The notes under the pieces: generated by a model
What the model saw: only the letters and a program-made list of their open reading frames with translations
The model's database searches: none
Told to the model about the DNA's origin: nothing
Shown: positions 15,038-42,136 of the stretch, piece after piece
How positions within the stretch are numbered: position 1 is the stretch's first letter
Layout: every line of letters starts with the position of its first letter
Translations under genes and position numbers: made by a program
Assembly: GCA_038211855.1 (NCBI GenBank)
Contig: JBBQVE010000003.1
Span: 33,907 to 97,906 of the forward strand
Source of the DNA: Candidatus Saccharimonadales bacterium
GTDB lineage: Bacteria; Patescibacteriota; Saccharimonadia; Saccharimonadales; SZUA-47
Length of the DNA stretch: 64,000 nt
Direction of reading: 5' to 3'

Positions 15038-15154
15038 GTGGTGAGCTTAGCTGGATTTGACCGGAACCAAGCTTTGACACGACTGTTCACTTCATATACC
15101 ACTTACAGCGACCACTATGCACACTTCTTAATAGCACTACCTCAGTGTCATTGA
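15038..15154 (+). repeat. Tail unit U-Ile-1 (att-like module; family of six in this window)
   Basis: Starts with GTGGTG (mimic of the tRNA-Ile2 CCA end, reverse strand). The open frame reads VVSLAGFDRNQALTRLFTSYTTYSDHYAHFLIALPQCH*. 15082-15158 is ~85% identical to 16084-16161. Confidence 0.6.
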
Positions 15155-15238
15155 ATCAGTGATTATGTGAGTAACTGGTATCGATTACTTTACTGCTATA
15201 TTAGTAGCTAGTAGTGGACGCACTTCGAACTTTTAAGG

Positions 15239-15499
15239 CTACTTCGACGTTGACTGATGAAGAATCGAGGCAGCTAGTGTTTGATATGGCAAACCTTCTT
15301 TTGCGGCACGAGCCTTGAGCTTGTAAACATCTCGTTCAGAGAGTCTAATGTTGATATTCATTGTTTTATTTAGAGAGTTTTTGGCTATTTTAACTGCTTC
15401 ACGCTTTACAGCTTCGACATGCTCAACAGATACAAACTCGCCAGTTTCAAAATCTTCGAGTATTTTCTGTTCTTCCTTATCTAGATCGTAATCTTTCAC
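15239..15499 (-). CDS. brnA: BrnA-like / CopG (RHH) antitoxin
   Basis: 86 aa. The C-terminal NINIRLSERDVYKLKARAAKEGLPYQTLAASILHQ is the typical RHH antitoxin signature. 4-nt overlap with the upstream toxin gene. Confidence 0.7.
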   Translation of the reverse strand: MKDYDLDKEEQKILEDFETGEFVSVEHVEAVKREAVKIAKNSLNKTMNINIRLSERDVYKLKARAAKEGLPYQTLAASILHQSTSK

Positions 15500-15777
15500 T
15501 GTGTTTCTCCTTTCAAATATTTTTTCGTGGCTCTTCGGCTTGGGATAATTGTCTTTAGAAATATTTTTTCGTCATCCTCAACAAACGGTACAAGGTATAC
15601 ATATTCGGCAATTTGTACAATGTACACTTTTTGCTTTGGATATTTAAGGTAATTGGGGTGGGTCTCAACACTAAGTAAACGACCATCATTAATCGCTACG
15701 AGTACATCCTCAAAACAGATTTCACGCTCAGTTAAAAGTTCAACGTTTTTTTGTTTATTCCAATCATAATACCTCAC
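15496..15777 (-). CDS. brnT: BrnT-like (DUF497) toxin
   Basis: 93 aa. YDWNKQKNVELLTEREICFEDV ... IFLKTIIPSRRATKKY fits the BrnT pattern (WD..K...N......FE...........SAR.A...E...Y). Toxin-first order as in brnTA. Confidence 0.65.
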   Translation of the reverse strand: MRYYDWNKQKNVELLTEREICFEDVLVAINDGRLLSVETHPNYLKYPKQKVYIVQIAEYVYLVPFVEDDEKIFLKTIIPSRRATKKYLKGETQ

Positions 15778-15783
15778 TATATA

Positions 15784-15812
15784 ATTTTATGACATAACAT
15801 ATGATTAGTCAA
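15784..15812 (-). promoter_or_regulatory. Promoter of the brnTA module with a palindromic operator in the spacer
   Basis: On the minus strand: TTGACT-N17-TAAAAT. The spacer and -35 form the imperfect palindrome TGACTAATCATATGTTATGTCA. Confidence 0.5.
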
Positions 15813-16039
15813 TTTGATACTGGATTAAGTAAATATAAATGGTTTCGGTTAAATCTGAAGCCATAGTCTTAGGAGTGTCAGTTCTGGAACCAAACATTTG
15901 ATACGGATGAAGACTATGGCATTAGTGAAATTCGTCTCAAGATAGATGGAGAGCTAAGGAGAGTAGAGTTGAACCATTTTACTTCTAAGGTCGAAGTAGC
16001 ATAGGTTATAGTGTATGACTTTAACAGATACAAAGATGT

Positions 16040-16168
16040 CTGGTGGGCTTTAATGGATTTCATTGGAATCAAGTATTGTCACAACTGTCCACTTTATATA
16101 CTACTTACAGCGATCTATTAAGTACACTTCTTAATGACACTACCTCAGTGTCATTGAATCAACGCTAG
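16040..16168 (+). repeat. Tail unit U-Ile-2 (att-like module)
   Basis: Starts with CTGGTGGGC (mimic of the tRNA-Ile2 3' end). The open frame reads LVGFNGFHWNQVLSQLSTLYTTYSDLLSTLLNDTTSVSLNQR*. Contains the 9-bp stem AATGACACT-acctc-AGTGTCATT. Confidence 0.6.
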
Positions 16169-16231
16169 CGCCATATTGAGCTACAATAGTGGCCATCGAT
16201 GCTTATGAAAACCCTAACTACTTAAATCTTA

Positions 16232-17158
16232 CTATTGGAAATAAGGAAAGCCCCACCACTCATTAGCATTACACGTAATCATATGTTTATCGAGTAGACC
16301 AATTTTCGACATCTCATCTTCGCTTAATTCAAAGTTTGTAATAGAAAAATTTTCCTTGATTCTCTCTGGGCTAGTAGCTTTAGGTATAGCTGGAGTTTCT
16401 CTTTGATATGCCCAACGCAGCGCAACTTGTGCGACAGTTTTCTTATGGGCATCAGCTATCTCGATCATAGTTTCATCTTTAAGAACCGGATTACCCGATG
16501 AACTTAGAGGAGAATAGGCTGTTACGACCACGCCTTGAGATTTGCAAAACTTTATCAGATCATTCTGAGCATGATAAGGGTGCACTTCTATTTGATTCAT
16601 AACTGGCTTCGTCTTGGCATAATTCAACAGATCAATTAGCATTGCCGCACTGTAATTCGCAACGCCTATAGACTTAGCAAGGTTCTTGCTAGCCAAGTTT
16701 TCCATTGCACGCCATGTTTCCTGTAGTGGTACGTGTGCAAAACGTACAAGACCGTTTTCACCAAGTGGCTCAAGATCGCCTCCATACTCAAATGCTACAG
16801 CCCAGTGCATTAGGTATAGATCAAGATATTCCACTTGCAAATCTTGTAGTGTCTTCGTGTGGGCTTCATAGACATGGTCTGGTGCATGATCTGTATTCCA
16901 AAGCTTACTGGTAATGAATAGCTCCTCGCGCGTTACCAGACCATCTGCAATCGCTTGATGTATACCTTCACCAACTTCCGTCTCGTTACCATATACAGAT
17001 GCACAATCTATGTGTCGGTAGCCAGTTTTTATCGCATCCACAATGGACTGTTTTGCAGTATTTTTTGATAAGTTCCAAGTTCCAAAACCGAGCATTGGCA
17101 CTATAGCGTTATTGCTGAGGGTAATTTTATCCATAGGATAATTATTCCATAAAACCAT
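16232..17158 (-). CDS. Aldo-keto reductase (AKR family, 2,5-diketo-D-gluconate reductase-like)
   Basis: LSNNAIVPMLGFGTWN...GYRHIDCASVYGNE...LFITSKLWN...LDLYLMHW...IPKATSPERIKENF are classic AKR motifs. The start may be ATG 17134 (MDKITLSNN...). Confidence 0.85.
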   Translation of the reverse strand: MVLWNNYPMDKITLSNNAIVPMLGFGTWNLSKNTAKQSIVDAIKTGYRHIDCASVYGNETEVGEGIHQAIADGLVTREELFITSKLWNTDHAPDHVYEAHTKTLQDLQVEYLDLYLMHWAVAFEYGGDLEPLGENGLVRFAHVPLQETWRAMENLASKNLAKSIGVANYSAAMLIDLLNYAKTKPVMNQIEVHPYHAQNDLIKFCKSQGVVVTAYSPLSSSGNPVLKDETMIEIADAHKKTVAQVALRWAYQRETPAIPKATSPERIKENFSITNFELSEDEMSKIGLLDKHMITCNANEWWGFPYFQ

Positions 17159-17327
17159 TAAGTTAAGTAGCCCCTAGTAGACGCTCTTAGTACTTTTAGA
17201 CGTTGTGCCGTTTTATGAAAATATATCAGCGCTAGCGAGCAGGGAAGAGTGTATTTGAACCACTTAACACCTTTTGCGAAAGGATCACGAAAATTTTTAC
17301 TTATGTGTAACAGATTCAAACCGCTTA

Positions 17328-17403
17328 TGGTGGGGGTGGATGGACTTGAACCATCGACCAAAGGATTATGAGTCCTCTGCTCTAACCACTGAGCTACACC
17401 CCC
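17328..17403 (-). tRNA. tRNA-Ile2 (anticodon CAU, lysidine-type), CCA encoded
   Basis: Reverse complement GGGGGTGTAGCTCAGTGGTTAGAGCAGAGGACTCATAATCCTTTGGTCGATGGTTCAAGTCCATCCACCCCCACCA folds as a 76-nt cloverleaf. It closely resembles my recollection of E. coli ileX. A Met identity cannot be excluded from sequence alone. Confidence 0.85.
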
Positions 17404-17486
17404 GTCATGAGGACAACCATCTGAATGGTTTTCTTCGTCGTTGAGAACAGATTAGATTATAGCAAAAAGAGTATAATGATGCTGGT

Positions 17487-17957
17487 ATGTTAAAAAAAAT
17501 AAAAAGTTTGCCGTCCAACGTGGCCGGCATTATCAAGAAATACCAGCTCACTGATGTACGCAACATTGGTCTGGTGATTTTTGGCGTAATAGCCGCGACG
17601 GTCACGTGGAGCGGTGCCAAAGCCATCGAACTGAACTTCCAGTTGCAGAAACAAGTTGTTGTTCTGCAGGAACAAAACAAGGTCCAGGATCTACAGAACC
17701 AAACGCAGGAACTTAAAAATGAGTACTACAAAACCGACGAATACAAAGAGCTCGCCGCACGCCGCTTATTTGGAAAAGCAGCGCCCGGCGAGCAAGTCTA
17801 TGTGGTGCCTAAAGATGTCGCGCTCAAATACGTTTCTCCCGTGAACGGCACAACCAGTGTGCCAGTGGTCGCGGCGAGTCCGGTAAAATTACCAGCCTAC
17901 CAGCAACACGTCCAGGATTGGCTCGACTTTTTCTTCCATCGAAGCCCGAGCGTCTAA
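17487..17957 (+). CDS. FtsB/DivIC-family septum formation initiator
   Basis: N-terminal TM helix, Q/E-rich coiled coil, then DEYKELAARRLFGKAAPGEQVYVVP (typical DivIC/FtsB C-terminal motif). Confidence 0.6.
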   Translation: MLKKIKSLPSNVAGIIKKYQLTDVRNIGLVIFGVIAATVTWSGAKAIELNFQLQKQVVVLQEQNKVQDLQNQTQELKNEYYKTDEYKELAARRLFGKAAPGEQVYVVPKDVALKYVSPVNGTTSVPVVAASPVKLPAYQQHVQDWLDFFFHRSPSV

Positions 17958-18103
17958 ACGTCGGAGCGTCGGCCGGAAATCAAGTGGACGATAAGAACGA
18001 TGATGCCTACAACAAGCACGAGGTGTATGAGTCCGCCTCCAATATGACCGAGTAAGCCGAGAAACCATAGTATTCCGAGAACGATTGCGACGTATAAAAG
18101 CAT
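17954..18103 (-). CDS. lmo0937-family small membrane protein (49 aa)
   Basis: Below the ORF cutoff. AAGGAG SD then ATG. MLLYVAIVLGILWFLGLLGHIGGGLIHLVLVVGIIVLIVHLISGRRSDV matches the GHIGGGLIHLLLV...GRR pattern of this family. Confidence 0.6.
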   Translation of the reverse strand: MLLYVAIVLGILWFLGLLGHIGGGLIHLVLVVGIIVLIVHLISGRRSDV

Positions 18104-18201
18104 AATTTATCTCCTTATTAATTTATGCCAGCAGTATGCACTATGCACTTTAGGCGTGCAGTAAAGAAAATTACTGCGATCATACAGGGTATACTTTAGG
18201 T

Positions 18202-18894
18202 ATGTCTCATGGTGCATTTAGTGATGAATTAGAAAAATGGCTCAAAAGCAAAGAGCCAAAAACCTTCGAGCAGCTAGAATTAGTCTTTGGTGATCGAAGT
18301 TTTGGCATAATATTTTTGCTGCTGATGGCTTTTCCCGCTTTACCAGTTCCAACTGGGGGTATTAGTCATGTCATGGAAATCCTAACTGTTTTAATTGCTT
18401 TGCAACCACTGTTTGGTCGTCAGAAACTATGGATTCCAAATTTCTTACAAAAACACGAACTGCCGGCTGGTCTCGTCAAAAAAGTCCTGCCTATTATGAT
18501 GAGACGGATCAGGTGGCTCGAAAAATTTAGTCGCGTACGTGGGCAGTCGATTATAAAAAATCCGTGGTTTGTAAGTTTTGCCGGACTTTCGGTGATTATT
18601 TGTACGCTGTCGGCTTTTTTTGCGGTACCGTTTTCGGGGCTCGACACACTACCAGCAATGGGTGTTGTGCTGATGGCGCTGGCACTTATATTAAGTGACA
18701 TATCGTTTTTTATTGTGGGGCTCGTGGTTGGCTTGACGGGGCTCGTGCTAGAACTGACGGTTGGCGCGGCGATAATTGTCGGTATCAAGCATTTTTTTTC
18801 CCATGCCACGCCTGATGAGAAGATCTGGTTTGCTCTATTCATTGTAGCCGTATTGGCAATCATCTTTTACCGGCATCGTCGTAAAAATAAGTAA
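18202..18894 (+). CDS. ExoD-family exopolysaccharide synthesis membrane protein
   Basis: FEQLELVFGDRSFGIIFLLLMAFPALPVPTGGISHVMEILTVLIALQ fits the ExoD family. TATACT -10 lies 6 nt upstream of the ATG (leaderless-looking). Confidence 0.7.
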   Translation: MSHGAFSDELEKWLKSKEPKTFEQLELVFGDRSFGIIFLLLMAFPALPVPTGGISHVMEILTVLIALQPLFGRQKLWIPNFLQKHELPAGLVKKVLPIMMRRIRWLEKFSRVRGQSIIKNPWFVSFAGLSVIICTLSAFFAVPFSGLDTLPAMGVVLMALALILSDISFFIVGLVVGLTGLVLELTVGAAIIVGIKHFFSHATPDEKIWFALFIVAVLAIIFYRHRRKNK

Positions 18895-18961
18895 TATTTC
18901 GTGCATGTCTTCAGGGTCGTAAGCGGCTATAATGAAAGCAAGCATAAACGGAGATAAAAAA

Positions 18962-19492
18962 ATGAGTGTAGACCTCGTTGCCGACAATAAAAAAATAACA
19001 GCCACTGCTCATGCCGCCCTAGAAGGTCCTGATATTTCTGGCACGGTAGATTTTACGGAATATGATGTTGATGGCTGGAAATATGTGCGTGTTGTCGCTG
19101 ATATTCAAGGCGATCCAGCGGTGTTGAAGCCAGGCAAACATGCCATGCATATTCATGAAAAAGGCGAGTGTGAATGTGAAGGCTTCAAATGCGCCGGCGG
19201 CCACTTCGATCCTGGTGCCTCTGGCAACAGCGACGCAGACGCCAATCACGGCTACCATGCCGGCGATCTCCCAAATGTCACAGTTGATGCATCGGGTCAT
19301 GGCACGATGGAAACGATTACTTCCCGTGTAACGCTTTCGGCTGGTCCTGTCTCGATTCTTGACACCGCCTCAGCGCCTGAGGGCACGTCAATCATGTTGC
19401 ACGCCAATGAAGACCCTTACACACCCGGAGAGTCTGGCTCTGGTCACAGCGGCGGCCCACGGCTTGCCTGCGGTAAAATAGAAGCTGTTTAG
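18962..19492 (+). CDS. sodC: Cu/Zn superoxide dismutase (SodC family), no signal peptide
   Basis: HAMHIHEKGEC, GGHFDP, HAGDLPN and SIMLHANED...GGPRLACGKI motifs. ATG 18932 overlaps the TATAAT -10, so ATG 18962 (GGAGA SD) is taken as the start. Confidence 0.8.
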   Translation: MSVDLVADNKKITATAHAALEGPDISGTVDFTEYDVDGWKYVRVVADIQGDPAVLKPGKHAMHIHEKGECECEGFKCAGGHFDPGASGNSDADANHGYHAGDLPNVTVDASGHGTMETITSRVTLSAGPVSILDTASAPEGTSIMLHANEDPYTPGESGSGHSGGPRLACGKIEAV

Positions 19493-19493
19493 A

Positions 19494-19955
19494 ATGGCTG
19501 ATCCGGATCCGTTACAGGCCGAAGAAAAGATTGTTGAAGCCTCGATTGTAACGCATGCTGACGAGATATCGCTCGATCAGCCGTTTCCTGATGAAATTAC
19601 GATGCCGACGCCACCAACCAACCCAGTGACCACACCTGAAGGGCAGACCGAAGAACCAGCCAAAGAACAGAAAGAACCCGCGACAGCCGCTGGATATAGC
19701 GCCGGTGACATTGCGACTGCGCTCGTGAAGCCTCCAGAGCCTGTTATTACCGAGACGAAAAAAGCTGTCAAAAATCCGCATGTTAAGTTTCTGGTTGGCA
19801 TCGGTGTAGCTTTTGCGCTCATTGGTATTCTGCTCATCGTGCTCGTTGACTCGATTCTCGGTGGTGTGGTGATGGTTTTTGGGGTGCTTTTTGTGATTGC
19901 GGCGGTCTTCTTGCCGGTCCACAAGCTCTTCAAACCAAAAAAGCCCGCCAAATGA
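19494..19955 (+). CDS. Hypothetical protein, acidic/Pro-rich N-terminus, C-terminal TM helices
   Basis: ORF only; no recognisable domain. C-terminal FLVGIGVAFALIGILLIVLVDSILGGVVMVFGVLFVIAAVFL. Confidence 0.5.
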   Translation: MADPDPLQAEEKIVEASIVTHADEISLDQPFPDEITMPTPPTNPVTTPEGQTEEPAKEQKEPATAAGYSAGDIATALVKPPEPVITETKKAVKNPHVKFLVGIGVAFALIGILLIVLVDSILGGVVMVFGVLFVIAAVFLPVHKLFKPKKPAK

Positions 19956-19982
19956 AAAAGCCCTGTCTACTACAACAGGGCT
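19955..19982 (-). terminator. Hairpin terminator (T-run on the minus strand)
   Basis: AGCCCTGT-8 nt-ACAGGGCT preceded by AAAAA on the plus strand. This equals hairpin + TTTTT for a minus-strand transcript from 20116. Confidence 0.45.
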
Positions 19983-22985: not shown

Positions 22986-23060
22986 CGCGGGATAGAGCAG
23001 TGGCAGCTCGTGTGGCTCATAACCACAAGGTCGCAGGTTCGAGTCCTGCTCCCGCTACCA
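22986..23060 (+). tRNA. tRNA-Met (anticodon CAU), initiator-like, CCA encoded
   Basis: CGCGGGATAGAGCAGTGGCAGCTCGTGTGGCTCATAACCACAAGGTCGCAGGTTCGAGTCCTGCTCCCGCTACCA forms a 75-nt cloverleaf. The unpaired 1:72 position (C:U) and overall similarity to bacterial tRNA-fMet (CGCGGG...GCTCATAACC...CCCGCAACCA) suggest initiator identity. Confidence 0.85.
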
Positions 23061-23076
23061 AGTTTGAATAACAGAT

Positions 23077-23106
23077 AGAGATTGGTTCCAAAACCAGTCT
23101 CTTTTT
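23077..23106 (+). terminator. Hairpin terminator after tRNA-fMet (part of the repeated L module)
   Basis: AGAGATTGG-ttccaaaa-CCAGTCTCT + TTTT. The 34-nt block 23077-23110 is identical to 24562-24595. Confidence 0.6.
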
Positions 23107-23229
23107 GATTTGATAGTTAATTCACCTCTGTTATTTAAGTTCGAGTCCTGTTTGGTCTTTTTGCTCATGCTTGCATTAGACTCTATGCACGTTGCAAGAT
23201 ATATATAAGACTAAATTCGAGGAGAAGTT

Positions 23230-24423
23230 ATGCCAGAGCTAATGAGCCCAGAGACTCAGGAAGATTTTAAACGGACAATAGGTCGCGTTGAAGGGGTAAC
23301 CGGCTATGAAAGACCAGCAGCATTTGCTCTGGGATTAGCCACTATTGAGGGTGAGGGCGAAGACAAAAAAGTCATCGAAGTACAATACACCCGCAGAAAC
23401 TACGCAGAAAACTTTGGGACAGCTGCAGTATTGGCTGTAGCTACACAACAATGGACAGGCTTAGAGACAGGAGAATTTTTGCTGAGACCTCATCAATTAG
23501 ATACTGTGACTCGTTTGTTTAGGCCATTTTTCGAAAATGGTCTAGTCTTACCAGGACATGCTAATATCGACACACTGATGGCGATGAGAGATGTGCAAGT
23601 TGGCGGATTATTTCCTAAATCAGGTGCGGATAATATCTCAAACCCACGTGTACCAATCTTAGGTGTAATACGCAGCTGGGATGACGAACCAGTCAGTGTT
23701 GCCGACATCTTTCTAAGACTCTATGCACTCTCTGACCGGCACCGCTTGCCAAACACAGCAAATATTGTGCCTGGACGCGATTTTCCAAAGCTACCAAACA
23801 CAGTGATGAGCGAGTCACTTGGTACGTTTAGCGTTGACAGATGGAATGCAATGTCGGAAAGAATCGCCTTTAGGGGCTTATCAACTGCCGTTCGTGGATT
23901 GGATAAATTCCCACGTATGACAGACCATGTGGTGCCAACGGGTGTTAGAATTGCCGACCCAAGCAGAGTACGTCTCGGAGCGCATCTTGGTTCTGGTACG
24001 ACCGTAATGCATGAAGGCTTTGCTAACTTTAACGCTGGTACAGTAGGCGCAAGTATGGTTGAAGGTAGAATCAGCGCTGGCGTACTTGTAGGTGAAGGTT
24101 CCGACGTGGGCGGCGGTGCATCAATTATGGGCACTATGTCAGGCGGTGGTAAAGAAGTCATTAGTATAGGAGAAAAATGTCTCTTAGAGGCTAATAGCGG
24201 AATAGGAATATCATTAGGAGATAACTGTAGAGTCGAAGCAGGCACATATGTAAAGTCGACCACTAAGGTCAAACTACCAAACGGCGACTGGGTAAAAGCT
24301 GATAGACTGTCAGGCCAAGATAATATGATGCTACGCAGAAGTTCTGTCACTGGCGAAGTAGAACTGCTACCAAACGTAGGTACAGAATGGGGCGGTCTTA
24401 ACTCAGTGCTTCATACTAACTAG
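23230..24423 (+). CDS. dapD: 2,3,4,5-tetrahydropyridine-2,6-dicarboxylate N-succinyltransferase, long (Pseudomonas-type) form
   Basis: DKFPRMTDHVVPTGVRIADPSRVRLGAHLGSGTTVMHEGFANFNAGTVGASMVEGRISAGVLVGEGSDVGGGASIMGTMSGGGKEVISIGEKCLLEANSGIGISLGD is a hexapeptide-repeat domain. It is near-colinear with my recollection of long-form DapD. GAGGAG SD. Confidence 0.8.
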   Translation: MPELMSPETQEDFKRTIGRVEGVTGYERPAAFALGLATIEGEGEDKKVIEVQYTRRNYAENFGTAAVLAVATQQWTGLETGEFLLRPHQLDTVTRLFRPFFENGLVLPGHANIDTLMAMRDVQVGGLFPKSGADNISNPRVPILGVIRSWDDEPVSVADIFLRLYALSDRHRLPNTANIVPGRDFPKLPNTVMSESLGTFSVDRWNAMSERIAFRGLSTAVRGLDKFPRMTDHVVPTGVRIADPSRVRLGAHLGSGTTVMHEGFANFNAGTVGASMVEGRISAGVLVGEGSDVGGGASIMGTMSGGGKEVISIGEKCLLEANSGIGISLGDNCRVEAGTYVKSTTKVKLPNGDWVKADRLSGQDNMMLRRSSVTGEVELLPNVGTEWGGLNSVLHTN

Positions 24424-24435
24424 TGTTTTAAAGTT

Positions 24436-24546
24436 CTAGTGTCGTGCGGTAGAGTAAACAACTCCTGCTTGAACCCTATAAAGTTGTAACCATCGAACTA
24501 ACTCGCTAAAGATAAGGTTCCAATTCGAATGTACAAGGGCTACCAA
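24436..24546 (-). repeat. Tail unit U-fMet-1 (att-like module)
   Basis: On the minus strand, TTGGTAGCC (mimic of the tRNA CCA end) opens the frame LVALVHSNWNLIFSELVRWLQLYRVQAGVVYSTARH*. 19/36 aa identical to the unit at 26230-26340, with no indels. Confidence 0.6.
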
Positions 24547-24591: not shown

Positions 24592-24806
24592 GATTACAAC
24601 GGACTTCCGGGTATATCCCCAGTTCTAAGATTTTAATGAGAAACCTGGGCATCGAGACATGAAACAGTGTTGTTAGTAGGGAAACACTTTATGCACACGG
24701 AAGCCTTAAGTATAGACTAATTGTCAATTTTTCGCAGTAAGCTATGTTATATGATGACCGAATTATTTAGCATATATTGAGAGTACTTAATAATAAGAAA
24801 GCTGAA

Positions 24807-25181
24807 ATGCGAAGCATAGTTTTGAACAAGTCAAGAGTATCCACCGTTATCTCAAAAAGTATCCTTACTATATCTATTATTTTATCAATGATAGGAATCT
24901 CGGTTGTGGCATCACCTATGGCGAGTGCTTATTACGGCTCATCGGTAATGGCCGTTAGTGCACCGGGATGTGGGACGACCTGCCCGAACGGACCGGAATA
25001 CATAATCCCTCAATTCAAAAAAGTATACATGATCTGTTACAAAGACATGACATGGCGATATACCAATGGTCGGTGGTCCAATAGATGGTATCGGGTTATC
25101 CCTGATGGATGGGGCTTTGCTGTTTACACGCCGGCGCCTGCTGTGGCCAATCCAATGTCAGTTGGCTGGTGTAACTACTAG
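24807..25181 (+). CDS. Small secreted Cys/Trp/Tyr-rich hypothetical protein (124 aa)
   Basis: ORF 24777..25181; ATG 24807 taken as the start. Signal/anchor ILTISIILSMIGISVVASPMASA. The mature part carries 5 Cys. A strong terminator follows. Confidence 0.55.
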   Translation: MRSIVLNKSRVSTVISKSILTISIILSMIGISVVASPMASAYYGSSVMAVSAPGCGTTCPNGPEYIIPQFKKVYMICYKDMTWRYTNGRWSNRWYRVIPDGWGFAVYTPAPAVANPMSVGWCNY

Positions 25182-25230: not shown

Positions 25231-25244
25231 TGACACCTATTTTT

Positions 25245-25369
25245 GCAGGTTCGAGTCTTGCTGCCTACTCATTAACAGGTGATTCCTTACGTACTTCATT
25301 AACTATCTTCCACATAGTTATCAGTTCTTGTTTCACTTGGTTCCATTTCGGCTCTGGCGTGGCTACCAA
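25245..25369 (-). repeat. Tail unit U-fMet-2 plus adjacent tRNA T-arm/acceptor copy
   Basis: 25245-25268 GCAGGTTCGAGTCTTGCTGCCTAC copies the tRNA-fMet 3' part. The minus-strand frame from TTGGTAGCC (25369) reads LVATPEPKWNQVKQELITMWKIVNEVRKESPVNE*, 17/34 identical to the unit at 42032-42136. Confidence 0.6.
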
Positions 25370-25484
25370 GTTTGAATATCAGCAAGAGATTGGCCTCAAA
25401 ACTAAACTCTATTATATTTGGTGCAAAAACTGACCTCTGTTTAGAAGATTTCAGTCTTACTCGGTGATCTGATAATATCGATGT

Positions 25485-26225
25485 ATGGAAATACTAGGAC
25501 TGCCCAGCTTTAGAATTGCAGCCAATATAAAAGGTAGTGAAGATAGTAATAAGGTCGCAATCTTAATGCCAGGTCGATTGGATACTAAAGACTATGCCAA
25601 CTTCCTTAGTCATTTAAATTTTCTTTCAATTCAGGGCTTCTATACTTTGGCGATTGACCCACCTGGTACGTGGGATAGTTCTGGTGACTTAAGTATCTTT
25701 ACAACCACCAATTACTTGAAAGTTATTCATGAAATTATCGACTACTTTGGCAATAGACCCACTCTTTTACTTGGCCATAGCCGTGGTGGAGCTACTGCTA
25801 TGCTTGCCTCGTGCAATCCAGCAGTATCTGGAGTTGTAGTAGTTAACTCAGCATTAGGGTCACCTACACCACCAGAGCTAAGTGATATTGAAGATGGAAC
25901 TCTACCTGAATACCGTGATTTACCACCTGGCAATATACGAACCGAGAAAAAGAAACGCTTCAACTTACCCATGGACTATTTTGAAGATGGTGTCAAACAC
26001 GACCCGGAAGGTACATTAGCCAGATTTAAGGGGCCTAAACTTATCGTACATGCAGATAAAGACGAGTTTGAAACCTTAGAGCGGGTTAGTGAAGTGTTCG
26101 ACAGGCTTTCTGAACCTAAAACATTTCTAAAGATTAATAGTACGCACGATTACCGACTTTACCCCGAGGCTATTAAAGCAGTTGAAGATGGACTAGGAAA
26201 ATTTCTAAAAGACTATTTTTACTAA
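25485..26225 (+). CDS. Alpha/beta-fold serine hydrolase
   Basis: 246 aa. Nucleophile elbow GHSRGG, late Asp (HADKDE) and His (STHDY). Confidence 0.75.
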   Translation: MEILGLPSFRIAANIKGSEDSNKVAILMPGRLDTKDYANFLSHLNFLSIQGFYTLAIDPPGTWDSSGDLSIFTTTNYLKVIHEIIDYFGNRPTLLLGHSRGGATAMLASCNPAVSGVVVVNSALGSPTPPELSDIEDGTLPEYRDLPPGNIRTEKKKRFNLPMDYFEDGVKHDPEGTLARFKGPKLIVHADKDEFETLERVSEVFDRLSEPKTFLKINSTHDYRLYPEAIKAVEDGLGKFLKDYFY

Positions 26226-26229
26226 GGTT

Positions 26230-26340
26230 CTAGTCCGCTGCGGTAGAGTAAGTAATAGGCATCACGCCACTAATAACCCCCAGCCAGCGGACTAACTCTC
26301 TACTGATATCGTTCCAATGTGAATGTACTTGGGCTACCAA
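26230..26340 (-). repeat. Tail unit U-fMet-3 (att-like module, last of the array)
   Basis: The minus-strand frame from TTGGTAGCC reads LVAQVHSHWNDISRELVRWLGVISGVMPITYSTAAD*. Its last codons (TACCGCAGCGGACTAGAACC) mimic the tRNA acceptor/T-arm. Confidence 0.6.
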
Positions 26341-26343
26341 TAA

Positions 26344-26372
26344 AAAAAGCCTTATCGAAAGATGGGCTTTTT
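26344..26372. terminator. Bidirectional terminator
   Basis: AAAAAGCC...ATC-gaaa-GAT...GGCTTTTT with an A-run on one side and a T-run on the other. It overlaps the stop of 26371..26823. Confidence 0.6.
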
Positions 26373-26823
26373 ACTTTGTGACTAAATCATTGAGCTGTTC
26401 TAGTGCTTGCTTGAGACCGGACTCCATGCCTCTAAGGTACTGATCTGCCTGTGGGCCGGCTGAGAGTACTTCTGAAGTTATGTTGAGTGTAGTATTGCCA
26501 TCAGTTTCTGTAAATAACACCGTGTGTTGTACTTCAAATAGTTTATTACCCTCTGGATCGAGCGGCGAATTGGTCATGACTAATTTTGCTGGTTCTTCGA
26601 CTACTATGAATTCACCTGTCATCGGCATGATGCGTCCATCCGGTGCTTTAGTATCCACACGCAATTGACCACCCGGCCGCACATCAAACTCACAGGAAGG
26701 AACGCTATACGGGGCTGGCATATACCATTGTTTGAACTGTTCAGGCTGTGTCCAGGCATCCCAGACTGCTTGGCGAGGTGCCTCGAATGTGTATTGTATG
26801 TTTAAGGGTTTATAGTCGTTCAT
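26371..26823 (-). CDS. SRPBCC/AHSA1-domain protein
   Basis: 150 aa. APRQAVWDAWTQPEQFKQWYMP... is typical of Aha1/START-like SRPBCC proteins. Translationally coupled to the ArsR gene (ATGA). Confidence 0.75.
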   Translation of the reverse strand: MNDYKPLNIQYTFEAPRQAVWDAWTQPEQFKQWYMPAPYSVPSCEFDVRPGGQLRVDTKAPDGRIMPMTGEFIVVEEPAKLVMTNSPLDPEGNKLFEVQHTVLFTETDGNTTLNITSEVLSAGPQADQYLRGMESGLKQALEQLNDLVTK

Positions 26824-35271: not shown

Positions 35272-35275
35272 GCCA

Positions 35276-35299: not shown

Positions 35300-35306
35300 C
35301 GCGTTA

Positions 35307-37026: not shown

Positions 37027-37040
37027 TATATAATCGGGGT

Positions 37041-37478
37041 ATGAAGACAATCGTGATTTGCGCGAGCGTGAGTTTCTATAGGCAAGCCATAGAAATCGAA
37101 GAGCAAGTCAAAGGGCAGGGCTACAAAGTCATCGTGCCAAAAATTGCATACGCCATGCGTGACGCAAACGATTTCGAAGTCAGTCACTACAAAACTTGGT
37201 TTGCCGATGCCAACGAATATCACAAAAAGGGCGAACTCATGCGGGCACATTTTGATAGGATCGCAGAAGGTGACGCGGTACTCGTGCTTAACTTTGAGAA
37301 GCACGGTGTGCAGAATTACATTGGCGGAAACGTGCTGATGGAAATGGGGATTGCGTTTTACTTGGAGAAACCGGTTATTATCCTGAATGAAGTTCCCAAA
37401 GATTCAGCTTTTTTGGAAGAACTACTCGGCTTTGAGCCTACAGTGCTACACGGCAAACTCGCTGACCTAAAAATTTAG
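37041..37478 (+). CDS. Nucleoside 2-deoxyribosyltransferase-like Rossmann protein (tentative)
   Basis: 145 aa. MKTIVICASVSF...DAVLVLNFEKHGVQNYIGGNVLMEMGIAFYLEKPVIIL resembles the NDT-like fold pattern. The assignment is weak. Confidence 0.4.
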   Translation: MKTIVICASVSFYRQAIEIEEQVKGQGYKVIVPKIAYAMRDANDFEVSHYKTWFADANEYHKKGELMRAHFDRIAEGDAVLVLNFEKHGVQNYIGGNVLMEMGIAFYLEKPVIILNEVPKDSAFLEELLGFEPTVLHGKLADLKI

Positions 37479-37526
37479 CACGAGACCTAGTAAAAAACAG
37501 GGGTGCATGGTATAATTTTTCGACGA

Positions 37527-37603
37527 GGCGATGTAGCTCAGTTGGTTAGAGCACAGGACTCATAAGCCTGGGGTCACAAGTTCAAATCTTGTCATCGCTA
37601 CCA
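37527..37603 (+). tRNA. tRNA-Met (anticodon CAU), elongator-like, CCA encoded
   Basis: GGCGATGTAGCTCAGTTGGTTAGAGCACAGGACTCATAAGCCTGGGGTCACAAGTTCAAATCTTGTCATCGCTACCA forms a 77-nt cloverleaf. It closely resembles my recollection of E. coli elongator tRNA-Met. TGGTATAAT -10 at 37508-37516. Confidence 0.9.
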
Positions 37604-39101
37604 AATCAGAATTTATAGCCGATTCGTCGGCTATTTTCTTTAATAACAGATAAGAGTCTGTCAATTCAACGGTTCCAAAACCGGTTTCAAGGTCATACGG
37701 TACTCCAGACGGAAAAAGTAACTTCTGAATAGCTTGTCTACTTCTTGTGCTAGCTCGGTTCCAAAAAATATCTGGTGTTTTAATAAAACTCATAGCATCG
37801 TCGACTATTTGTTCTTTCTCTTTTACGTAGCTGTCCATTTCTGTTTTTTCTTGTTCTAGTAGTGCTATCTTATCGTCAATGCGTCTTAGTTGTTCGTCTC
37901 TATCATCTTCCGTAATCTTGTCTGCAATAAACTTATTATTAGTCGAGAATCTCAGCTCTTTATGCACTTCAATATCTCGATTCACTTGTGCCGCTGTTTC
38001 GAGCGCTTTACCGTATTCATCATTCCACTCCCTTAAAACCACTATCTTAAATAGTTTGGCAATCCCTTGATTTATCGGGCGTTTACTTTCCAGTAGTTCT
38101 CTAAAATGTTTGTGGACCATATCCGCATCTTGGCTAGATTTCTTGTGAGTTACAGATTTACGACAGGTTTTTCTTGGACAGTGATACATGGAGTAGTGGC
38201 CACCGTTACCATGAGGCGTGCTGGCAGAAAGGGGTAGGCTGCAGTTCGTACATAGCAGAGTGCCTCTTAATGGATAAAAGTCATCACCTTTAATAACAAA
38301 TACTCGTTTGTCTTTATTGATTATTTCTATATTCTTATATATCGTTTCCTCGCCTACTAAAGGTGTATGTCTACCTCTAATTATCTTGGTACTTAGTTTA
38401 TTTTTGGTATAACCAGCATAGAATAAGTTCACTAAAATTATCTTCATAGCATCATGGGCTTTTGGTTTTCCAGATTTTGTCTTTATACCATTATCAAATG
38501 CCATTCGAGAAATATCGGCTACACTGTAGGTTCCTTTTGAAAACTCAGTAAGTAATACTCGAATCTTGTCTGCATAATCAGGGTCGGGTACAACCGACCT
38601 GTTGACCTTTTTGTAGCCGATTGTAGCGCTGTGCGGCCATTCTCCTTGCTCTACACGCATTCTCATGCCTGTAAGGCTTCTAATAGCTCGTATTTCGTTA
38701 TCAAACTGTGCTGCAGCAGCTAGAATAGCCTCCAAGAACCTACCGACAGGGTCATCATCTATTGGCTCAGTGACTGAAATGATTTTAATGTCATATTTTG
38801 CTAAGGCAACCTTGATTCCGTAGTAGTCACCAAGATTTCTTGCTAGTCTGTCAATTTTCCAGATATAAAGTACATCAATTTTGCCTTTGTTATCTCTAAC
38901 AAATTGAAGCATACGCTGTAGCTCTGTGCGGTCAATAAACTTGGCCGATTCGCCTTCTTCCCTGAAAATGTGCGAATCAGGAACGGGTACTTCCTGCTTA
39001 CGGGCGAAGAGCTTACACTCTTTTTCTTGATTATCAAGACTAAGGCGTTTTTCGGCCTGTTCTTTTGTGGATACTCTTGTATAGATAATTCCTAGACCCA
39101 T
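37560..39101 (-). CDS. Large serine recombinase (integrase); last 14 codons are encoded by the antisense of tRNA-Met
   Basis: GIIYTRVSTKEQ (catalytic Ser), DRLARN, recombinase domain, Cys-rich zinc ribbon (CTNCSLPL...YHCPRKTC) and a coiled-coil region. The ORF ends ...SDLVAMTRFELVTPGL*, with the stop (TGA) in the tRNA anticodon loop. TATAAT lies 6 nt upstream of ATG 39101. Confidence 0.9.
   Translation of the reverse strand: MGLGIIYTRVSTKEQAEKRLSLDNQEKECKLFARKQEVPVPDSHIFREEGESAKFIDRTELQRMLQFVRDNKGKIDVLYIWKIDRLARNLGDYYGIKVALAKYDIKIISVTEPIDDDPVGRFLEAILAAAAQFDNEIRAIRSLTGMRMRVEQGEWPHSATIGYKKVNRSVVPDPDYADKIRVLLTEFSKGTYSVADISRMAFDNGIKTKSGKPKAHDAMKIILVNLFYAGYTKNKLSTKIIRGRHTPLVGEETIYKNIEIINKDKRVFVIKGDDFYPLRGTLLCTNCSLPLSASTPHGNGGHYSMYHCPRKTCRKSVTHKKSSQDADMVHKHFRELLESKRPINQGIAKLFKIVVLREWNDEYGKALETAAQVNRDIEVHKELRFSTNNKFIADKITEDDRDEQLRRIDDKIALLEQEKTEMDSYVKEKEQIVDDAMSFIKTPDIFWNRASTRSRQAIQKLLFPSGVPYDLETGFGTVELTDSYLLLKKIADESAINSDLVAMTRFELVTPGL
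37615..37641 (+). terminator. tRNA-Met terminator hairpin located inside the recombinase coding region
   Basis: ATAGCCGA-ttcg-TCGGCTAT + TTTCTTT, 12 nt after the CCA end. On the minus strand it encodes ...KKIADESAIN.... Confidence 0.5.
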
Positions 39102-39147
39102 GGAACCATTATACGACTAATATTTACAGGTTATAAGTGTTGATATT

Positions 39148-39300
39148 TTATTTTGGAACTGTTTGTTGTACGAAGTCTTTTGCAATTACTTCTAGGAGAG
39201 AAATAATATCCGCGATTTGCGCATCGGAAAACTCCTTATACGGTTTGCCGAGAAGCTTTCGTGCCTCTTTAATTGTAATTATTGGCGAATCTTGAGACAC
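39148..39300 (-). CDS. Candidate 50-aa protein between recombinase and DUF5681-like gene
   Basis: GTG start. Product VSQDSPIITIKEARKLLGKPYKEFSDAQIADIISLLEVIAKDFVQQTVPK looks protein-like. However, there is no SD and it starts right after a terminator hairpin (39303-39330). Confidence 0.3.
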   Translation of the reverse strand: MSQDSPIITIKEARKLLGKPYKEFSDAQIADIISLLEVIAKDFVQQTVPK

Positions 39301-39386
39301 AAAAGCCCTTCACAAAGTTAGAAGGGCTCTAGATACAAAACGGCCTATTAAGCCTATTGTATACTATCTAGACATAATACTAAAGC

Positions 39387-39710
39387 TTATTTTGTAGTAG
39401 TGTATCTTCTATGTACAATGATAAGTTTCTTATCCTCTTCCTCTCTAACCTGACCACTGTTGCCATAGCCGTGTCTTATGAGTAGTTCAGTAGCTCTTAA
39501 ATCTCCACGAATCGCCCTAACTATCATTCCCTTAATAATTGCTTCTATTGGCGTACCCAATGTTTCTTTTCCAAGAAGTGTATAACCAATTTCTACATCT
39601 TCGAGGAATTCTTTGATGTAACTGGAAACATGCTTAGAGCCTTTAGGTTTGCTGCCGCGTCGTATATCATATCCTTTTTTGAAAGGTTTAAGGTTTTGTT
39701 GATTTGCCAT
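39387..39710 (-). CDS. DUF5681-like phage/plasmid-associated protein
   Basis: The N-terminal NLKPFKKGYDIRRGSKPKGSK resembles the N..L.PFKKG....GRPKG motif of DUF5681. The rest is unassigned. Confidence 0.5.
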   Translation of the reverse strand: MANQQNLKPFKKGYDIRRGSKPKGSKHVSSYIKEFLEDVEIGYTLLGKETLGTPIEAIIKGMIVRAIRGDLRATELLIRHGYGNSGQVREEEDKKLIIVHRRYTTTK

Positions 39711-39828
39711 AATCTCACTGTATTCTCGCAGTAATTATTAATAAAAAAGCAACAAAGTGCTTGGCTAAGTTACCTAGGTAAACTATAGCACTCCTTGTCC
39801 AAGTCATCCGAAGGAGGTATGCTTAATT

Positions 39829-39934
39829 TGTCTTAAGCTAGCAGTAGTTTTCTAATTGCACATCAGTGCGGTTTTGCCATTAAATGGCATCCGTACAAAA
39901 GCAGTTAGGCAAAACCTACTGTTGGCTTAAGACA
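39829..39934. repeat. Nested inverted repeats in the divergent intergenic region of the element
   Basis: Outer arms TGTCTTAAGCTAGCAGTAG (39829-39847) / CTACTGTTGGCTTAAGACA (39916-39934), 17/19 complementary. Inner arms GGTTTTGCC (39870-78) / GGCAAAACC (39908-16). Preceded by AAGGAGG and a 5-codon mini-ORF (39819-39836). Confidence 0.5.
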
Positions 39935-39970
39935 CCTAGTACGGGTGCCTTTTTAGTTTAGGAGCATTTT

Positions 39971-40627
39971 ATGGAAAAACTGTTCGACGTAGAAGAACTT
40001 CATAAGACTTATCGTAAGAGAAAAATTAAAAAAGTTCTTCTTACTTTAGCTGCAGTTTCGCTTTTAATCGTAGTATCAAATAAGTATGTTCCAAGATTTA
40101 GTAATACAAGGTCTTCTTTAATTACTCCTACACAGACATCTGCCGAACCTGTATCTGTATTAGGTGAGAATAATACTAGAGTTAGTGGTTCTACATACAA
40201 TCCAGGACTTTCAAAAGACGAAGCCTTGGCAAAGCAGCAAGCCGCTCAGGCGCAACAACAACTTGATGCTGCAAACCAAAATCTAAAAAATGTATATCAG
40301 AATATTGGAAATACGGATTCGTATACTCCAACTACCGACTACTCATCAACTACTAGCAATAACACCTACAGTCCTCCAGGGGTAACAAATACACCGAAAC
40401 CAGTTTGCACGCCAAACCCACAGTTAGCTGGTTTAAGCGCTTCAATAGTTCAGGCTCAAGGTCAAATATCGGCTTTTAATGATAAGCTCAACACTCCTGG
40501 CGATATGTATGGCTACAATGCCTCTGGCTATGCTAATTATCGTGCGCAAGAAGGGCAGAGGTTACAGTCACAACTCAGCCAGCTACAAAGTCAATACAAC
40601 CAGCTAAAGGCACAGAGTAACTGTTAA
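39971..40627 (+). CDS. Membrane-anchored Q/N/S/T-rich hypothetical protein
   Basis: GGAG SD. TM LLTLAAVSLLIVV. Low-complexity coiled-coil-like Q-rich segments. Confidence 0.5.
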   Translation: MEKLFDVEELHKTYRKRKIKKVLLTLAAVSLLIVVSNKYVPRFSNTRSSLITPTQTSAEPVSVLGENNTRVSGSTYNPGLSKDEALAKQQAAQAQQQLDAANQNLKNVYQNIGNTDSYTPTTDYSSTTSNNTYSPPGVTNTPKPVCTPNPQLAGLSASIVQAQGQISAFNDKLNTPGDMYGYNASGYANYRAQEGQRLQSQLSQLQSQYNQLKAQSNC

Positions 40628-40710
40628 CCGTAAGTATCAAAATTACAATTTATTATATGGGCTAATAGCAAAAGTATGACGTATTAAATCTCCTAATGTA
40701 CTGAAGAAAT

Positions 40711-41019
40711 CTACTTAGCAGGAATTAGTGCAAAAGAGTCTGATGCTACCTTAAGCCCACTCTCTTTAATATAGTCTAGTTTCTCTTTAGCAGGCTTTTC
40801 TCTCAAGTTAATAGGCAGTCGAGAATTCAAATAGTAGAAAAGTTCATCACTTTCTGCGGTTTTAGAGTTGTTCGCTAGTGGAATAAAGCCGACCTGCTTC
40901 CAATAATTTGTAGGAATATTATCCGCTAATTCAAAAACAAACTTACCATTAAACACGACCGTTCCAATGGTCATATTTAATAATTCATCTTTTAAAATAA
41001 ATGTTACTGGCTTGCTCAC
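40711..41019 (-). CDS. HipS-like protein (resembles HipA N-terminal subdomain), encoded downstream of the kinase
   Basis: 102 aa. GTG start 3 nt after the kinase stop with GAGGGG SD. The segments ...IGTVVFNGKFVFE..., ...LFYYLNSRLP... and ...ASDSFALIPAK parallel my recollection of the HipA N-domain (vGeL...F.Y / fF.NLLP / DsvGAvtLIP). Inference. Confidence 0.5.
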   Translation of the reverse strand: MSKPVTFILKDELLNMTIGTVVFNGKFVFELADNIPTNYWKQVGFIPLANNSKTAESDELFYYLNSRLPINLREKPAKEKLDYIKESGLKVASDSFALIPAK

Positions 41020-41022
41020 GGT

Positions 41023-41985
41023 CTACCCCTCATAGATGCTTCTTAGTCTAGTGTAACGCATTATTAGGGACTTATATAGGAGTTTTCTTCGCCTTGTATC
41101 ATATTCTAAAATCTCCAAGCTAGGCATTTTAATCACTAAACCTGCGAGTTCCAGCATATCCATGTCTTTAACTCTTTTAAGGCTCTTCTTGAATCTTCTG
41201 CCCCAAGATGAGTTAGATTTTAAATGCTGTTCAATTAGTTCAAACATATTTGTTTTCTCTCTCTTTGAATTAAGGATAAATCCGTACTTACTGTTTTCAA
41301 CGTATCTCTTAAGTCTCTCTTCATCGTTCGTCATATTATCTATATCAGCATCACTTAACTCAAACATCAGACTGCTTCCATGGTCAAACAAAGGGGTAAA
41401 ATAACGTAAAGAAACTAACCTCTGTCGGTCAACTAAAATCTGCTGTCTATATTTTTGATAGGAGCAAATACCCCAGTTTTCGTGGTGTCTATCCATATTA
41501 CCTATCAGTGCATCAAATACGACCATATCTGCATAACTTTGCAGCAGGTCATCTGCAGCGTAGTACTTACCCTTTATTTTTTCTTCTATAGCTTCAAGTC
41601 TTAGTGGTTCAGATGGTGTTTCAACGATAGCTGCACCATAGGTTGTTTCTACCTTTTTAGGGAATATATTTCTAGCAAAGCTGCCCACAGGCTTCCAATT
41701 TCTTGGCAATATTCCTGGGTAACGGCTTCGCAAGACACTCTCTAGCCTTTTGGGCGTGGTTTTGATTGTTACTAACTGTGCATTCAATCCCATCAATTCT
41801 GCGATGTGTGACGCCAAGCACTCAGCCCAAACCTCGCGAGGTGTATGTGTGTACGTTTTGAAGAAAAAGATTTGTTTCTTATCTTTATGATAAAACGTAA
41901 GCCGAGGCCTACTACCGCCAACAACTTCAGCATGAACCGTACTATATCGATTCATATCGAGTTCGTTGACTGTAAAGTGTTTCAT
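41023..41985 (-). CDS. HipA-family serine/threonine kinase lacking the N-terminal subdomain (HipT-like)
   Basis: VVFDALIGNMDRHHENWG (catalytic loop, compare IGATDGHAKNFS), TPLFDHGSS (DxG-like) and GGSRPRL (Gly-rich loop). Confidence 0.75.
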   Translation of the reverse strand: MKHFTVNELDMNRYSTVHAEVVGGSRPRLTFYHKDKKQIFFFKTYTHTPREVWAECLASHIAELMGLNAQLVTIKTTPKRLESVLRSRYPGILPRNWKPVGSFARNIFPKKVETTYGAAIVETPSEPLRLEAIEEKIKGKYYAADDLLQSYADMVVFDALIGNMDRHHENWGICSYQKYRQQILVDRQRLVSLRYFTPLFDHGSSLMFELSDADIDNMTNDEERLKRYVENSKYGFILNSKREKTNMFELIEQHLKSNSSWGRRFKKSLKRVKDMDMLELAGLVIKMPSLEILEYDTRRRKLLYKSLIMRYTRLRSIYEG

Positions 41986-42031
41986 ATCCTACTAACAGTA
42001 TAGTCTAAGGCTATAGTTCAAAGCCTTCCGC

Positions 42032-42136
42032 TCACACTTTAACAGTAGTTTCTTCCCTTACTGTATTAACTATCTGCCACATGGCTATCAGCTCTCGCTT
42101 TATTTGGTTCCAATTCGTTCCTATCACGCCTACCAT
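42032..42136 (-). repeat. Tail unit U-Met-1 (right end of the integrative element; predicted alternative recombinase C-terminus)
   Basis: The minus-strand frame from ATGGTAGGC reads MVGVIGTNWNQIKRELIAMWQIVNTVREETTVKV*. It is in the same frame relative to TGGTA as the recombinase ...SDLVA. Confidence 0.6.

Follow-up and report, generated by a model that had tools for sequence, protein, structure and literature searches.

Results

Six antisense units and one complete element at three CAU tRNAs

We analyzed a 64,000-nucleotide stretch from a Candidatus Saccharimonadales bacterium (assembly GCA_038211855.1, contig JBBQVE010000003.1, positions 33,907 to 97,906; hereafter the window), in which three tRNA genes with a CAU anticodon, called by both ARAGORN and Rfam, are accompanied by six short open frames antisense to the tRNA. 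Each of these frames, which we refer to as units A1, A2, B1, B2, B3 and C1, closes a small gene block on the 3' side of its tRNA. A first-pass annotation had singled out the six as tails sharing one frame and one sequence box, and direct reading of the sequence recovers all of them. Every unit starts at NTGGT(A/G), stays open in the N-TG-GTR frame for 34 (B2 and C1), 36 (B1 and B3), 38 (A1) or 42 (A2) codons, and carries an HYGGAA box at nt 24–29. The tryptophan-asparagine pair (W9-N10) that had been assigned to this box needs qualification: the offset of the box is kept in all units, but codon 9 of A1 reads CGG (Arg) instead of TGG (Trp). The pattern TGGTR-N17-HYGGAA occurs eight times in the window against 0.28 occurrences expected, a count that none of 100 shuffles produced. 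Six of the eight matches are the units, and the remaining two, at 42869(-) and 55815(+), look like chance matches. Amino-acid identities within pairs are 17/34 for C1/B2 and 19/36 for B1/B3, as first reported.

Only unit C1 is accompanied by a recombinase. It belongs to a complete element (element C, 37604–42136), which comprises, with its flanks:

37527–37603 (+), tRNA-Met (CAU), elongator-like (ARAGORN, Rfam), the putative attB-derived B arm of the left attachment site (attL) of element C
37560–39101 (-), large serine recombinase (LSR), 513 aa (Pfam Resolvase 3.8e-29, Recombinase 1.2e-4)
37615–37644 (+), terminator-like hairpin AGCCGA-TTCG-TCGGCT followed by a T run, 12 nt past the tRNA (terminator scan)
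39148–39300 (-), conserved 50-aa open reading frame (ORF; ..ITIKEARKLLGK..) directly upstream of the LSR, no Pfam match
39387–41985, four cargo genes (Pfam matches below the curated cut-off)
42010–42031 (+), T-arm mimic (AGTTCAAAGCC...) just past the stop codon of C1
42032–42136 (-), unit C1, the putative P arm of the right attachment site (attR; nt 1–33) and native LSR tail MVGVIGTNWNQIKRELIAMWQIVNTVREETTVKV up to the stop codon
42137–42172 (+), putative displaced original tRNA-Met terminator (B' arm; terminator scan, 14-bp stem and T run, right after the CCA-like core)

The ORF at 37560–39101(-) is a large serine recombinase, and the window holds no second one. Its catalytic domain (PF00239, E 3.8e-29) covers residues 5–155 and includes the YTRVST motif, with S11 invariant in 76 sequences; phmmer matches are to resolvase-family and TP901-1 catalytic domains. 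PF07508 scores 22.7 bits against a cut-off of 21.1, and PF13408 is found in several homologues. An AlphaFold2 (AF2) model of the homologue P0002 (mean predicted local distance difference test, pLDDT, 84) displays catalytic, recombinase and zinc-ribbon domains and a long coiled coil, with a Cys-rich beta region at residues 282–325 and helices at 345–441. When this model was searched with Foldseek, it aligned at full length with the SPbeta, Bxb1, PhiC31 and LI integrases over ~520 columns, with E values down to 2.6e-18. A sequence search of P0002 against the PDB matched the catalytic domain alone; the remaining domains were seen by the fold search.

The last 14 codons of the LSR (LVAMTRFELVTPGL, then stop) are the antisense of the 3' half of tRNA-Met, and the TGA stop is the complement of U33-C34-A35 in the anticodon loop (TCA).

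The TTA TGA that ends the integrated gene (37560–37565) is the complement of U33-CAU-A37. A neat 14-residue tail arises from CAU tRNAs only; at a tRNA-Glu (contig L037), the ORF reads through the whole tRNA. Some annotated LSR ORFs (P0097 with 584 aa, P0011 and P0113) span one or two complete or partial tRNAs, and P0097 contains LVAPTGLEPV twice. This sequence arrangement indicates tandem partial tRNA copies at the three loci.

The unit peptide is the native C-terminus of recombinases on circular contigs

A query made of the LSR ORF body joined to the C1 peptide returned 1195 homologues at E<=1e-5, and we classed the tails of the best 120. In 81 of these 120 the protein ends in a tRNA-antisense ..xL-stop, the product of a CAU anticodon loop; 12 have endings of the ..LPG-stop type, and 11 are truncated or lack the anchor motif. 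Apart from the native tails, almost all full-length proteins among the 120 have antisense-tRNA endings, for example LVAATGIEPVTLGL and LVGVAGLEPATNRL, each followed directly by the stop. Native tails with the W-N pair were scored by the script in five of the 120, and P0002, which has no GFGT anchor, was missed; the six homologues listed are P0002, P0003, P0010, P0017, P0022 and P0109. Five of the six are of the C1/B2 type. P0002, P0003, P0010 and P0017 (532–534 aa) end in ...LVGMVESNWNQIKRELITMWQIVNEIRKESPVTV, the peptide of units C1 and B2, or in close variants of it; the tail of P0109 (555 aa) is of this type but more diverged, and P0022 has another type (LVSPTGLGWNTLHESIVEL...). C1 is 59–65% identical in protein to the LSR C-termini on circles L001 and L005, and the B2 tail is 72% identical over 32 residues to that of P0002, which is encoded on L001.

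The native-tail proteins lie on circular contigs of 4.5–6.3 kb. L001–L004 are permutations of a single circle of ~4.5 kb, and their ends overlap by 141, 141, 55 and 30 nt, lengths that equal typical assembler k or k-1; L005 is a ~6.3 kb circle with an overlap of 30 nt. All five carry an intact element attachment site (attP) inside the LSR ORF, whereas the integrated relatives carry tRNA-encoded tails. Because the free forms end in the native C1/B2 peptide, read across the site, attP lies inside the integrase gene; and the coexistence of free and integrated forms of the gene implies that its tail is swapped upon integration. On the evidence of these assembled contigs, both forms exist among the relatives of element C, as distinct from element C itself.

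We consider it very likely that the units are attR junction scars of LSR-inserted elements at the 3' ends of CAU tRNA genes, and that they hold the native integrase tail. In this mechanism, the LSR would insert its element into the extreme 3' end (...YACCA) of the tRNA gene. The P' arm of attP would consist of the ~10 codons before the core TGGTAG or TGGTGG and the P arm of the first ~11 codons past it, while ~23 further codons would encode an amphipathic helix. On integration, the body of the gene would be fused to the tRNA in antisense, yielding a 14-residue tRNA-encoded tail that ends at the TGA made by the U33-CAU anticodon loop. The native tail of 34–42 codons would be carried to the far end of the element, beside the displaced terminator of the tRNA, and a unit would be the P half of attR (P arm joined to B') at the tRNA-distal end. 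We infer the exact crossover dinucleotide. The terminators found after C1 (42137–42172) and after A1 (15039–15006) are expected if the insertions pushed the original tRNA terminator outward.

Two layers of constraint in the tail

Substitutions in seven C-type tails were counted with the Nei-Gojobori method (NG86). In codons 12–34, the proportion of synonymous differences (pS) is mostly 0.4–0.76 and that of nonsynonymous ones (pN) mostly 0.15–0.30, with dN/dS of ~0.1–0.4. Codons 1–11 show only 0–2 synonymous differences, with pN up to 0.38. This substitution pattern shows codons 12–34 evolving as protein and codons 1–11 constrained as a DNA site. Across eight aligned units, neither the core nor the block CGAAWTGGAACCA varies; one of the eight is from a genome with an LSR of only 43% identity. 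In the AF2 model of P0002, residues 498–507 (LVGMVESN) form a low-confidence linker and residues 505–528 a helix, in agreement with the split into a DNA-like and a protein-like part. Coding-like substitutions, claimed in the first-pass annotation for all units, reach statistical clarity in the C1/B2 type alone, and there only with LSR-attached homologues included; the B1/B3 and A1/A2 pairs by themselves lack codon periodicity. The suggestion of a recombinase-binding half-site fares well: the first ~33 nt appear to act as a DNA site, with synonymous positions nearly frozen and CGAAWTGGAACCA unchanged. The data support the view that the half-site and fossil-tail readings are compatible rather than mutually exclusive.

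If the units were DNA recombination sites only, translation of the tail would be functionless and the frame open merely by descent. The disordered linker to the tail, the pLDDT of only ~67 for the tail helix, the great differences between tail types among lineages and the 81 of 120 homologues that are intact ORFs lacking the native tail all fit this idea. Yet the low dN/dS of codons 12–34 falls outside a normal half-site of ~25 bp, each tail type keeps its length and its stop position, and relatives with LSRs only ~30% identical retain the motif W-N-Q..(E)L. We therefore regard a site without a functional tail as unlikely.

Far less probable is that the units are structured RNA, such as a tRNA-like or 3'-UTR element, or folded single-stranded DNA resembling the attC sites of integrons. 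Folding would agree with the single unit in each cassette-like islet, with a long-range inverted repeat of 10 bp in B3 (TAGTCCGCTG...CAGCGGACTA) and with the presence of T-arm mimics, but RNAalifold finds four pairs with no compensatory change in eight C-type units (-1.2 kcal/mol) and only weak structure in four B-type units (-3.6 kcal/mol). Rfam matches in the window are the three tRNAs only, no hairpin is conserved in the unit alignments, the array ORFs scanned with Pfam include no IntI, and the C type shows codon periodicity and a length conserved without indels. These results give no support to a structured RNA.

A T-loop mimic displaced by 5 bp

The first 8–21 nt of a unit match the acceptor and T-stem of the tRNA in register, as seen in four independent tRNA/unit pairs; in A2, nt 14–21 still do so. 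Strict unit/tRNA identity at the core amounts to only 5–8 nt. Further out, the tRNA arm has a T-loop motif of the type (T/C)TCGAACC at nt 19–26, and the unit has its own copy, (T/C)TGGAA(C/T)C, at nt 24–31. The outward shift of 5 bp recurs in the tRNA of array A with A2, that of array B with B1, that of element C with C1, and the tRNA-Glu of L037 with its unit L37b. The alignments show the TGGAAC box as a mimic of the T-loop (TCGAAC/TTGAAC) displaced by 5 bp. The zinc-ribbon-domain motif of serine-integrase sites is set 5 bp farther from the crossover in attP than in attB (Rutherford et al. 2013, PMC3783163). Because the shift observed here matches this geometry, the box is probably the zinc-ribbon-domain contact in attP.

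Earlier, the box had been described as part of a TGGTA...TGGAA direct repeat; a displaced T-loop mimic fits better, the block lying 5 bp outside the T-loop of the tRNA. Equally, a unit had been described as a tRNA 3' end split by an ~85-nt insert, which is true as a description, since a T-arm mimic follows the stop codon, in the free circles too. That the units are displaced tRNA 3' fragments of tyrosine-integrase islands with accidentally open frames would account for their place downstream of tRNAs, their CCA-like start and their T-loop-like motifs, but this is largely refuted and has next to no probability, as identity to the tRNA spans 5–8 nt at the core and not a repeat of 15–50 nt, the T-loop-like box is 5 bp out of register, the array ORFs scanned with Pfam include no tyrosine integrase (Phage_integrase), the LSR is the only such recombinase in the window, and the unit peptide is the in-frame C-terminus of free-circle LSRs.

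Tail types in integrated relatives

Integrated relatives carry units as well. The LSR of contig L087 is 74% identical to that of the window, and four further C-type units lie upstream of it, one decayed with an in-frame stop and one with a degenerate core. C1 is 74–81% identical to the L087 units in protein, and its first 33 nt are identical to unit d. In L088, one distal unit lies 8 kb from an LSR seated in a CAU tRNA. A scan of genome contigs with the LSR alignment found relatives at <=43% identity among the matches listed, including L008 and L037.

L037, from a Saccharibacteria metagenome-assembled genome, links a second tail type to the recombinase. Here an internal LSR with a frameshift continues without a break into LVTLIEANWNLICEEILRWVDILKGQ..., a tail of the B1/B3 type, and the LSR ORF is continuous with LVTLIEANWNLICEEILRW...; this tail also serves as the P arm of the following element, the LSR of which reads through tRNA-Glu. 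Because this LSR runs into a B1/B3-type tail, that type is tied to LSRs. The proposal that the units are fossil recombinase tails has thus been shown for C1/B2, whose peptide ends the LSRs of circular contigs, and is strongly supported for B1/B3 by L037, while for A1/A2 it stands by analogy only; on that analogy, A1 and A2 probably belong to the same LSR system.

A TilS-FtsH pair lies within a few kb of the LSR-occupied CAU tRNA in the window (43768–46594), in L087 (12463–15266) and in L008 (13455–16147, labelled Candidatus Saccharibacteria). The FtsH of the window is 64% identical to that of L008 and 69% to that of L087. Relative to the tRNA, the pair lies 3' in the window, past the element, and 5' in L087.

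Recombinase-less islets stacked at two tRNAs

Five of the six units bound islets of one or two genes without an LSR, stacked in tandem at two CAU tRNAs. Array A reads, from the tRNA outward:

17328–17403 (-), tRNA (CAU) heading the array (ARAGORN, Rfam), Ile2-like by our own reading
16232–17158 (-), aldo/keto reductase, cargo of the A-proximal islet (Pfam 5.9e-50)
16040–16168 (+), unit A2, putative P arm and tail LVGFNGFHWNQVLSQLSTLYTTYSDLLSTLLNDTTSVSLNQR up to the stop codon (direct reading)
15239–15777 (-), BrnT-like and CopG-like ORFs, a probable toxin-antitoxin pair, cargo of the A-distal islet (Pfam, both just sub-threshold)
15038–15162 (+), unit A1, of the A2 type but decayed (R9 for W9, 1-nt deletion)
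15006–15039 (-), putative displaced original terminator of the tRNA at 17328–17403 (B' arm; terminator scan, 15-bp stem)

The deletion in A1 relative to A2 follows ...TTYSD and puts the last 13 codons of A1 out of register; a homologous C-terminus, LxTLLNxTTSVSLNQ, can be read in a different frame.

Array B, likewise from the tRNA outward, contains three islets:

22986–23060 (+), tRNA (CAU), initiator-like, heading the array (ARAGORN, Rfam)
23061–23110 (+), P' remnant of islet 1, with homology to the coding 3' end of the LSR (ETGFGT..YLL)
23230–24423 (+), DapD-like hexapeptide transferase, cargo of islet 1 (Pfam THDPS_N, Hexapep)
24436–24546 (-), unit B1, putative P arm and fossil tail LVALVHSNWNLIFSELVRWL...YSTARH up to the stop codon, resembling the LSR-fused tail in L037
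24547–24600 (+), P' remnant of islet 2, near-identical to 23061–23110
24777–25181 (+), 134-aa protein, cargo of islet 2 (no Pfam match)
25240–25369 (-), unit B2 (LVATPEPKWNQVKQELITMWKIVNEVRKESPVNE up to the stop codon, 25265–25369) with a T-arm mimic at 25240–25264
25370–25420 (+), P' remnant of islet 3, a diverged copy
25485–26225 (+), alpha/beta hydrolase, cargo of islet 3 (Pfam)
26230–26340 (-), unit B3, putative P arm and fossil tail
26341–26375, hairpin resembling a displaced tRNA terminator, after B3

The LSR-less islets have conserved left ends of ~50–90 nt and right ends of ~110 nt. They consist of cargo between P' remnants and P-arm units without an LSR of their own, in the manner of cis-mobilizable elements (CIMEs), and L087 shows the same pattern. 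The P' remnant of islet 1 has an internal deletion and a frameshift and contains a terminator hairpin at 23077–23102. Because the left ends of all three B islets are mutually homologous and match the LSR 3' coding end (ETGFGT...YLL) with this deletion and frameshift, their sequences suggest that the B islets go back to one deletion derivative that diversified later. More generally, the LSR-less islets are presumably deletion derivatives, which may have moved in trans. In the B islets, which lack an LSR, the P' arm has a mirror of the TGGAAC box (TTGGTTCC at +22..+29).

The left end of islet 1 also contains an exact copy of the T-loop segment of tRNA-fMet (GTTCGAGTCCTG) at 23135–23150, ~80 nt 3' of the tRNA, and that of islet 3 a diverged counterpart.

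Further features of element C

The hairpin at 37615–37644 is antisense to the LSR codons KKIADESA (family form KKIA(D/S)E(S/E)A). Its stem covaries, AGCCGA/TCGGCT in the window corresponding to AGCCTC/GAGGCT in the free circles L001 and L005, and it looks as if the element supplies the tRNA with a new terminator.

The small ORF upstream of the LSR recurs with 50–63 aa (..I[TS][IV]KEARKLLGK..D.QI..) in L001 (1677–1829), L005 (~2190–2350), L087 (9784–9954) and L088 (9764–9955), and P0079 carries it as an N-terminal fusion to the LSR. It is a candidate recombination directionality factor or regulator.

The cargo of element C comprises a weak sub-threshold DUF5681 match, unknown proteins of 218 and 102 aa, and a distant sub-threshold HipA-like kinase. 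Several islets and elements have cargo with a defence- or toxin-like look: the HipA-like kinase (41023–41985), the BrnT-like/CopG-like pair (15239–15777), an HEPN_AbiU2 protein in L005 (696–1400) and, in L088 (3578–6209), a reverse transcriptase adjoining an ADP-ribosylglycohydrolase.

A second T-loop/T-arm mimic ends every unit, ~100–120 nt from the core (25240–25264, 42010–42031, 24430–24440, 26224–26235, 15137–15147 and 16149–16159), and has an equivalent in the free circles (L001 3465–3485, L005 3997–4017). In the C type it resembles the 3' arm of tRNA-fMet (GGTTCAAGTCCTGCTGCCTA), and in B1 and B3 the TAG stop lies inside it. The near-constant distance in these sequences suggests a function or a common origin. 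Given the fMet-like mimic, we considered an origin of the tail by old duplication of the pre-core LSR segment together with a tRNA-fMet junction and rejected it, as the similarity is too weak.

Discussion

The window harbors a serine-integrase system with an unusual target and with attP embedded in its own gene, and the first-pass annotation was essentially correct. Several points nevertheless weigh against our reading of the units as attR scars. For element C itself, neither an empty chromosomal site (attB) nor an excised form was recovered, so its boundaries rest on the logic of the att sites. The substitution analysis draws on few sequences, some of which share one genome and are partly non-independent, and the pairs alone lack codon periodicity, with 14/11/13 differences by codon position in B1/B3 and 6/5/6 in A1/A2. 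The protein search, the viral scan and two metagenome scans yielded no LSR with an A1/A2-type tail: a chimeric protein query gave seven candidates, none with that tail; a 20-nt DNA pattern had no match in viral or metagenome contigs; and a peptide-pattern scan of metagenomes gave 133 pattern matches, none of which was confirmed. Five P-arm pattern matches in viral contigs proved to be chance matches in unrelated ORFs. The mirror of the TGGAAC box is not recognizable in the P' arm of LSR-bearing elements, and we make no claim of a symmetric site. Finally, LSRs are not known to target attL, which leaves the tandem stacking unexplained.

The closest precedent for an attP inside an integrase gene is found in the archaeal tyrosine integrases of the SSV (Sulfolobus spindle-shaped virus) type, in which the site is in a tRNA gene and integration partitions the int gene. 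There a tyrosine integrase is split into two large non-functional parts, whereas here the last ~34 codons of a serine integrase are exchanged and the ORF stays intact. In the mycobacteriophages BPs and Brujita, which use a tyrosine integrase, attP lies in the repressor gene, integration replaces the C-terminus of the repressor, and the lost tail is a degradation tag. Both systems make a protein that depends on the integration state, the repressor in these phages and the recombinase itself here.

With the large serine integrases A118/LI, Bxb1, PhiC31, SPbeta SprA and TP901-1, the present family shares domain architecture and fold, short att sites, a core identity of a few bp and the 5-bp shift in attP (PMC3783163). 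It differs from them in its target, the extreme 3' end of a tRNA gene, and in that attP lies inside the integrase ORF, the enzyme's C-terminus varies with the integration state, and the P' arm encodes a tRNA terminator in antisense. According to a survey from 2020, no serine integrase had been reported to use a t(m)RNA gene, and only 14 of 297 cases were predicted (PMC7192596). Tycheposons, of which 910 of 937 are based on tyrosine recombinases, stand in tandem at tRNAs with the newest nearest the tRNA (10.1101/2020.12.28.424599). Like CIMEs and the accretion arrays of integrative and conjugative elements (ICEs), they resemble the present arrays in having recombinase-less, att-bounded segments in tandem at a tRNA gene; in those systems the segments are bounded by partial-tRNA repeats, and here by P arms and fossil integrase tails around mostly single-gene islets. 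Our literature search found no published description of this LSR family or of the tail swap.

It is conceivable, if rather doubtful, that the tail swap acts as a state sensor, with an amphipathic helix in the free form and a tRNA tail in the integrated form, and that the LSR-less islets are trans-moved cassettes captured in an integron-like way. If true, activity, stability or directionality might not be the same in the free and the integrated enzyme, the element would sense its integration without relying only on a separate factor, and integron-like gene capture would operate at tRNA genes in small-genome bacteria of the Saccharibacteria type.

Serine integrases are the main tools for the insertion of large DNA and have been thought to avoid tRNA genes; here, a large natural LSR family appears to be aimed at the universally conserved 3' end of tRNA, and its attP/attB pairs can be read directly from genomes. 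Within ~80 nt, three codes would be superimposed: an integrase C-terminus, an attP site and an antisense tRNA terminator. The exchange of the tail raises the question of whether the C-terminus affects directionality or stability. For annotation, the fossil tails and P arms are precise markers of where islets begin and end, in host genomes that appear Saccharibacteria-like, a group whose mobile elements are poorly described.

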